From the UHGV virus genome UHGV-0176688: DNA of 41,778 bases; one strand, 5' to 3'. The notes under the pieces were generated by a model. That model searched no databases. It worked only from the letters and a program-made list of their open reading frames with translations, and was not told the origin of the DNA. The stretch is from a virus. A program made the translations under genes and the position numbers. Below are positions 2,881 to 3,456 of the stretch, one piece after another (position 1 is the stretch's first letter; the number at the start of each line of letters is the position of its first letter).

Positions 2881-3456
2881 ATGTTAATGGCGAACGATAA
2901 CGCATATGCAGAAGAAGATCTCATTTTGAGTGACTTCATAGGGAAGCGTGAACGCTGGACCCAAAAGCGAGAGGAACTTTACGCCTCATTAGTTCGCAAA
3001 GGCGTCAATATCGAAACCGCACAGAGCGGCGATATGACAGTGGTAAGCGTTGGATTGCACGGTGTAAGCGTGTCAGCAATCAATCATGAGCCATACGTTG
3101 CGTTATCCGAGTCAATGGTAAGGTTAGTTAAGTTCCTGAAGTACACAGAAGCGAATAATGTAATCATTGGCAAAAAGAATATCCCTTTTTCCTCGGCTTT
3201 TTACTGGATGATGAAAGGGCTTGATGCCCGGCGGACATCATGGCCTAAAGGGAGCTATATATCGATGTTCCGTGGCAGCATTGGCAGCAAAGAAAAGCTC
3301 TTCGAATTCTTGCCGGAAGAGGCATTCGATATTGTGGAAGGGTGCGATGTGATGGTGATGCCTCGCCTGGTAATGATGAATGGTGATTTACAGGCGCAGA
3401 CAGACTGGTTTGCAACTGGTGTGGATATTATCGCGACTGACTGGGAGGCTTTCTGA
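2881..3456 (+). CDS. DUF2829-like domain protein (Tad2-like fold candidate)
   Basis: RBS AAGGAG before ATG; C-terminal half FSSAFYWMMKGLDARRTSWPKG...QTDWFATGVDIIATDWEAF fits the DUF2829 pattern as I recall it. Confidence 0.6.
   Translation: MLMANDNAYAEEDLILSDFIGKRERWTQKREELYASLVRKGVNIETAQSGDMTVVSVGLHGVSVSAINHEPYVALSESMVRLVKFLKYTEANNVIIGKKNIPFSSAFYWMMKGLDARRTSWPKGSYISMFRGSIGSKEKLFEFLPEEAFDIVEGCDVMVMPRLVMMNGDLQAQTDWFATGVDIIATDWEAF

Follow-up and report, generated by a model that had tools for sequence, protein, structure and literature searches.

orf6 lies at 2881..3456 on the plus strand of a 41,778-nucleotide stretch of viral DNA (UHGV-0176688, hereafter the window). It encodes a 191-aa protein that corresponds to gp006 of Escherichia phage D6 (YP_009914683.1) and is assigned here to the Tad2 family as a two-domain member. 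The two proteins are 100% identical, and the D6 copy is labelled 'hypothetical protein, orf6'; a test of gp006 did not turn up in the published literature. The protein matches phrog_7362 over its full length (E=8.5e-136) and is acidic, with a pI of 5.0 for the whole 191 aa. A Shine-Dalgarno sequence read from the DNA, AAGGAG at 2870..2875 (plus strand), stands 5 nt before the ATG at 2881 and is kept in the related locus L002. orf6 is a real, conserved gene.

The window is a D6-like phage-plasmid of the P1 family, and it shares 98.6% identity with D6, itself a P1-family plasmid prophage, over bases 2400-4400. It is nonetheless distinct from phage D6, whose tRNA set is different and whose gp013 is shorter than the ORF at 11104-11781. 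Five tRNA genes (Arg-tct, Tyr-gta, Thr-tgt, Ser-tga, and Met-cat) occupy 776-2425, where the D6 record annotates just Ser, Thr, and Asn tRNAs in the corresponding region; tRNA cargo therefore varies among close relatives. A match to the STnc100 sRNA at 1838-1958 scores 39 bits, below the gathering score of 47. Elsewhere, the window carries a Fic/Doc-family toxin gene (13094-13471, minus strand) and a gene for a Ref-type RecA-dependent nuclease (27084-27659).

The gene order is tRNA cluster, orf6, orf5, lpa, pacA, pacB, and then c1 on the opposite strand, and it is the same in the D6 record. The initial annotation placed orf6 next to the terminase module. This holds physically, but two genes (orf5 and lpa) intervene, and the locus is better described as an accessory slot upstream of lpa. 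In P1, this slot is filled by phd-doc-pdcA-pdcB, and the genes tested in it (phd, doc, and pdcB) are non-essential accessory genes. In three Pantoea-type relatives (L005, L007, and L008), a pair of genes encoding 94-aa and 155-aa proteins sits between the Tad2-like gene and lpa, and this pair has a weak PemK-toxin match. With a PemK-like pair in the slot that phd-doc fills in P1, the stretch before lpa acts as a hotspot of addiction and accessory genes.

A 455-nt spacer free of ORFs (2426-2880) separates tRNA-Met from orf6. It is 76-84% identical to L002, compared with about 64% for adjacent coding DNA, and it contains perfectly conserved blocks, such as 2555-2609. An Rfam search of 2426-2880 returned nothing, the spacer folds no better than shuffled sequence (z=-1.29), and codon periodicity is not seen in it. 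A sigma-70 scan upstream of orf6 gave no site. The P1 Lpa box AAGTTACTT, as given by the annotated LPhot promoter, shows no enrichment across the window. Its one nearby look-alike, AAGTTACGA at 2819-2827, was rejected because no -10 element stands at a suitable distance from it, and a late promoter of the P1 type was not recognised upstream of orf6.

An imperfect inverted repeat, CACTACCGG-N5-ACGGGGGATAGT (2831..2856, plus strand), lies 25-50 nt before the orf6 start codon and is a candidate operator or promoter element. It is retained upstream of the L002 and L012 orthologues even where the flanks do not align. A composite motif, CACTACCGG-N5..9-(C)CGG-ATA[GC]T, has two copies in the whole D6 genome, and these copies (window 2831-2856 and 10062-10089) stand just upstream of the two operons with Tad2-like genes. 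The motif may be a shared operator or promoter; its pattern was defined after both copies had been seen, which makes it a lead and not a result.

The Tad2 domain and its pocket

The C-terminal domain of orf6 (3172..3453, plus strand; aa 98-191) is a DUF2829/Tad2 domain. Residues 103-190 match Pfam PF11195 (Tad2-like) over profile positions 3-72 of 73 (E=1.1e-9) with 39.1 bits against a cut-off of 25, well beyond chance, and the DUF2829 pattern that the initial annotation saw in the C-terminal half is thereby upheld. Its equation of DUF2829 with the Tad2 fold agrees with Pfam's family name, 'Thoeris anti-defense 2-like domain', and with Yirmiya et al. A family profile built from orf6 relatives reaches SptTad2 (8wjd) across the whole domain, while a phmmer search of PDB sequences with orf6 itself gave noise only (best match malate dehydrogenase, E=0.6).

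An AlphaFold2 model of orf6 was made from a 15-sequence subfamily alignment drawn from an exhaustive profile search. It has a mean pLDDT of 87.9 and two domains. The structure comparison that had been proposed as a check, Foldseek against Tad2 structures, returned SPO1 Tad2, SptTad2, and HgmTad2 as the best three PDB matches, and the BFVD matches of the model are Tad2-like proteins as well. In the model, residues 98-191 take the Tad2 fold, with a helix at the N-terminal end that leads into an antiparallel sheet, and are superposable on solved Tad2. The PF11195 match, the SptTad2 profile match, and the Foldseek matches together make a sponge role the most reasonable reading of the protein.

Some database names point elsewhere. 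NCBI gives some homologues the name 'MW1434 family type I TA system toxin', and HgmTad2 was first published as AcrIIA7. Taken literally, these labels would make orf6 a type I toxin or an AcrIIA7-type anti-CRISPR protein, which is extremely improbable. The same NCBI cluster is also called 'Thoeris anti-defense Tad2 family protein', and NCBIfam finds nothing on orf6 beyond noise. Known type I toxins are small membrane peptides, unlike the soluble, acidic 191-aa product of orf6. The anti-CRISPR idea was rejected on published grounds, as attempts by Li et al. to reproduce Cas9 inhibition failed for HgmTad2 and for its homologues. Searches of NCBIfam and PADLOC with orf6, orf5, and ORF 11104 yielded nothing useful, and no Pfam toxin or antitoxin family matched orf6 or orf5.

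SPO1 Tad2 holds 1''-3' gcADPR between W25 and W73 by van der Waals contacts, while N26 and D79 contact phosphates and hydroxyls, with further contributions from T78, S76, and other residues. The Asn after the first Trp (SPO1 N26, HgmTad2 N22) contacts the diphosphate. Two independent alignments, a HMMER profile and a MAFFT alignment with four solved Tad2 proteins, were used to map these positions onto orf6, where the equivalents are W121, P122, W176, T179, V181, and D182. W121 and W176 align with SPO1 W25/W73 and HgmTad2 W21/W87, and D182 aligns with SPO1 D79 (HgmTad2 D93); all three positions are kept. SPO1 N26 is lost to P122 and T78 (HgmTad2 T92) to V181, and S76 (HgmTad2 S90) is conservatively changed to T179. 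The WP-KG loop of orf6 is one residue shorter than the canonical WNGKG. Among the polar gcADPR contacts (the Asn after the first Trp and the S-x-T-D motif), D182 alone is retained.

Five residues are invariant in the 15 subfamily members: R118, W121, W176, D187, and W188. By alignment, the pocket of the orf6 domain keeps both tryptophans and the Asp, and the invariant Arg and the C-terminal DW are kept as well. The invariance of the pocket tryptophans suggests that the aromatic walls are under selection while the polar lining is altered. In HgmTad2, the mutants W21A/N22A and S90A/T92A/D93A lose gcADPR binding, and three of the five positions changed in them differ in orf6. The residues of the HgmTad2 cyclic-dinucleotide site are not conserved in orf6 either, according to our own mapping on the MAFFT alignment.

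With the diphosphate-binding Asn replaced by Pro and the Ser/Thr pair by Thr/Val, orf6 probably departs from canonical 1''-3' gcADPR binding, in its ligand or at least in how the ligand is bound. Sponge activity has been proven in Tad2 members for 3'cADPR, His-ADPR, N7-cADPR, cGG/cGAMP, and cUMP/cCMP, which they bind in two different pockets, and this variety makes the changed pocket of orf6 compatible with a sponge for another ligand.

Two more DUF2829-like domains had been noted in the window, at an "unusual density". One is strongly confirmed. The ORF at 11104..11781 (plus strand), directly downstream of a dUTPase gene (10595-11089), encodes a 225-aa protein that matches PF11195 (E=7e-23) and ModTad2 (9eib; E=2.5e-19). 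It has a GWNG...WVPSVGD pocket and its own N-terminal extension, which belongs to phrog_872/11049 and has a weak 'Dec protein' match (E=0.044). The D6 counterpart, gp013, has only 146 aa and bears a DUF2829 annotation; the long form is present in phage SJ46 (J46_0048) at 73% identity, and relatives occur in 178 phage records. Both this protein and orf6 carry a C-terminal DUF2829 domain within a longer protein on the same element, but the pocket is canonical in the former and altered in the latter, and their N-terminal regions are unrelated. By its pocket residues, ORF 11104-11781, and not orf6, is the more canonical Tad2 of the window.

The other domain is marginal. The C-terminal ~60 aa of the antirepressor (29442..29630, plus strand, within the gene at 28689-29630) form a truncated DUF2829-like module, which has no Pfam match at E<=1 and is found with a custom domain HMM at E=3.3e-4 among the window's 375 ORFs. 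It retains the RRSSWPEG and DVVATDW end motifs, but the second Trp of the pocket and some 40 residues from the middle are missing. The reported density thus comes down to two bona fide domains and one degenerate module. The module matches phrog_7385, a family of stand-alone ~65-aa proteins (E=5.4e-15). Outside the window, the D6 record has a weakly similar 66-aa ORF (19789-19986; E=0.084 in an in-locus hmmsearch) that directly follows its other ant gene. Together with the phrog_7385 match, this ORF hints at an Ant-associated mini-domain.

These comparisons bear on the proposal that orf6 is a Thoeris gcADPR sponge. Its broader part stands, as orf6 has the fold, the family membership, W121, W176, and D182. 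At the residue level, the specific claim is not supported by the alignments, which place P122 at the Asn position and Thr179/Val181 at the Ser/Thr positions, and the protein has an extra N-terminal domain. A canonical anti-Thoeris Tad2 would sequester 1''-3'/1''-2' gcADPR in the usual pocket and carry its N-terminal domain as a passive appendage. The conserved fold and Trp pair speak for this reading, Li et al. put a non-functional gcADPR site at about 1% of short Tad2 proteins, and some Tad2 proteins are broad Thoeris inhibitors. It is nevertheless unlikely in view of the Asn-to-Pro change at the diphosphate contact, the Ser-to-Thr and Thr-to-Val changes, and the one-residue deletion in the WNGKG loop. 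A second copy of identical specificity would also be less expected beside the more canonical Tad2 at 11104-11781.

The N-terminal domain and orf5

The N-terminal domain of orf6 (2908..3156, plus strand; ~aa 10-92) is modelled as helix-helix-strand-strand-strand-helix. Residues 10-92 are predicted to form an extra domain of the alpha-beta-beta-beta-alpha type seen in dsRBDs. PF11195 is the sole Pfam match at E<=1 for the whole of orf6, and the partner domains PF13876 and PF21825 are absent. No sequence relatives of the N-terminal domain outside the subfamily were found in Pfam or PDB sequences, and a Pfam search with 13 N-terminal domains alone gave nothing consistent and no dsrm match. Ankyrin-repeat matches of the domain profile in the PDB were set aside as spurious, driven by an 'LL..G.DV' motif.

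Judged by entry titles, the best structural matches of the domain are TRBP dsRBD3, from a complex of TRBP with RPAP3, and the STAU1 SSM-'RBD'5 domain swap. Both are presumably dsRBDs of the protein-contact type. Canonical dsRBDs contain a KKxAK-type basic helix and a GPxH loop. The orf6 domain shares the alpha-beta-beta-beta-alpha fold with dsRBDs, but it is only 9-14% identical to TRBP dsRBD3 and Staufen1 'RBD'5, lacks both the KKxAK-type helix and the GPxH loop, and is acidic. The resemblance is one of fold and not of family membership. No column of the domain reaches 80% basic residues and its pI is 5.6, and it is therefore read as a scaffold, with oligomerisation or protein contact more likely than RNA binding.

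A bolder reading gives the N-terminal domain a function of its own. It would be an anti-defence module, either a new sponge or an effector binder, while the Asn-to-Pro change in the pocket could direct the Tad2 half towards a signal for which no sponge has yet been described. On this view, orf6 would be an inhibitor with two specificities, peculiar to P1/D6-like phage-plasmids, and might act together with orf5. Sequestin was itself found through its fusion to Tad2. This reading is quite improbable.

orf5 (3456..3848, plus strand) encodes a 130-aa protein that corresponds to D6 gp005 and has phrog_7004 as its only assignment. It starts within the orf6 stop codon (TGATG), an overlap that points to translational coupling of the two genes. 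A homologous orf5 is found at the same overlapping position in L002, L008, L010, and L011; it is absent from L005, L009, and L012, which retain orf6. orf5 is thus a frequent but dispensable partner, and orf6 works without it. The orf5 protein has only five close homologues and no Pfam or PDB match, and its AlphaFold2 model, made from four sequences, is unusable at pLDDT 47. Residues W17, C22, C27, W57, W117, and H123 are invariant in distant homologues and could form a metal or ligand site. P1 pdcA and pdcB were considered as equivalents of orf6 and orf5 and rejected, as tblastn gave no P1 match and pdcB encodes an HNH endonuclease that has its D6 homologue at another locus.

The conserved overlap of orf5 with the orf6 stop codon, which extends to distant relatives, would suit a two-gene module in which the DUF2829 domain is no longer a sponge. 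In such a module, the domain would act with the N-terminal domain and the orf5 product in plasmid-prophage maintenance, exclusion, binding of a host protein or another metabolite, or some other role. The setting fits as well, as the locus is the phd-doc slot of P1 and holds the PemK-like pair in Pantoea relatives. The presumed protein-contact type of the best dsRBD matches and the diverged pocket are also in keeping with such a role, and the truncated module fused to the antirepressor indicates that the fold is used in other contexts. Several relatives have orf6 without orf5, however, and toxin or antitoxin matches are absent from PADLOC, NCBIfam, and Pfam. The subfamily-invariant residues also line the known Tad2 pocket. 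Loss of the sponge role is possible but doubtful on this evidence.

Distribution and proposed function

An exhaustive search of 1.8 billion cluster representatives found 29 proteins related to orf6 at E<1e-3, about a dozen of which share both domains. With just 29 relatives, the orf6 branch lies far from the tested Tad2 proteins. Subfamily members are found on contigs of roughly 80-108 kb, and the orf6 family is present in 125 PLSDB plasmids (75-97 kb among the matches listed), 123 of them typed as non-mobilizable, from Escherichia, Salmonella, Shigella, Pantoea, and Enterobacter. A tblastn search of all phage records with orf6 returned D6 only, as two records that are its GenBank and RefSeq copies. 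The two-domain subfamily is small and restricted to P1/D6-like phage-plasmids.

At every locus examined, the orf6 homologue lies between the pmgS/tRNA region and lpa, just upstream of lpa-pacA-pacB. It diverges faster than the genes around it. In L002, orf6 is 56% identical, compared with 78% for lpa, 65% for pacA, 78% for pacB, and 69% for c1; in L012, it is 43% identical, compared with 60%, 55%, and 84% for its neighbours. Such divergence fits what is expected of a host-interaction gene, without proving one.

The preferred reading is that orf6 is a Tad2-type sponge for a nucleotide signal, with a non-canonical pocket, which shields the phage-plasmid from a signalling defence. It is given about an even chance. 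Characterised Tad2 sponges are homotetramers with pockets at the protomer interfaces. By analogy, orf6 would assemble into a homo-oligomer whose inter-subunit pockets would bind and sequester a nucleotide-derived immune second messenger of the host. Candidate messengers would be Thoeris-type TIR products or the products of CBASS or Pycsar. With its messenger sequestered, the effector would never be activated, and the phage-plasmid could infect or be induced.

Clinical E. coli, Shigella, and Salmonella commonly carry D6- and P1-like phage-plasmids, whose anti-defence genes help decide which hosts they enter and are kept in. The Tad2-family assignment improves the annotation of a gene that is 'hypothetical' in D6 and in most plasmid records. 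Since its pocket differs at positions whose importance mutagenesis has shown, orf6 can reasonably be put forward as a candidate sponge for a new ligand, or as a candidate carrier of a new fusion partner domain. The fold family, the sponge mechanism, the fusion habit, and the presence of Tad2 in D6-like elements are already published. In a 2025 preprint, automated Tad2 calls were made in 93% of D6-like and 56% of P1-like phage-plasmids; the gene was not specified. The additions made here are modest: the assignment of D6 gp006 and its relatives to the Tad2 family, a two-domain branch restricted to phage-plasmids, its predicted dsRBD-like N-terminal domain, and a pocket that lacks the canonical Asn. 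The overall gain is incremental.

Comparison with known systems

The orf6 locus takes the same position relative to lpa-pacA-pacB-c1 as the phd-doc-pdcA-pdcB slot of P1. The genes in the P1 slot have no homology to orf6, however, and D6 carries its homologues of phd, doc, pdcA, and pdcB at other places.

orf6 is 15-23% identical to the solved Tad2 sponges, which comprise SPO1 Tad2 (8sme/8wje), ModTad2 (9eib), HgmTad2/AcrIIA7 (8kbi), and SptTad2 (8wjd). It differs from them in having WP-KG for WNGKG, T-G-V-D for S-Q-T-D, and an added N-terminal domain of 97 aa. Characterised Tad2 sponges are short, single-domain proteins of about 90-105 aa, whereas orf6 has 191 aa and two domains. Tad2 domains are often fused to other modules, and the length of orf6 therefore does not exclude membership in the family. 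The Acb4-Tad2 fusion of Pasteurella phage Pm86 and the fusion of Sequestin (PF21825) to Tad2 resemble orf6 in carrying a second small domain in one polypeptide. In these known cases, the partner is a second sponge. The partner domain of orf6 matches neither Acb4 (PF13876) nor Sequestin, and it is modelled as a dsRBD-like beta-sheet domain, whereas Sequestin is alpha-helical.
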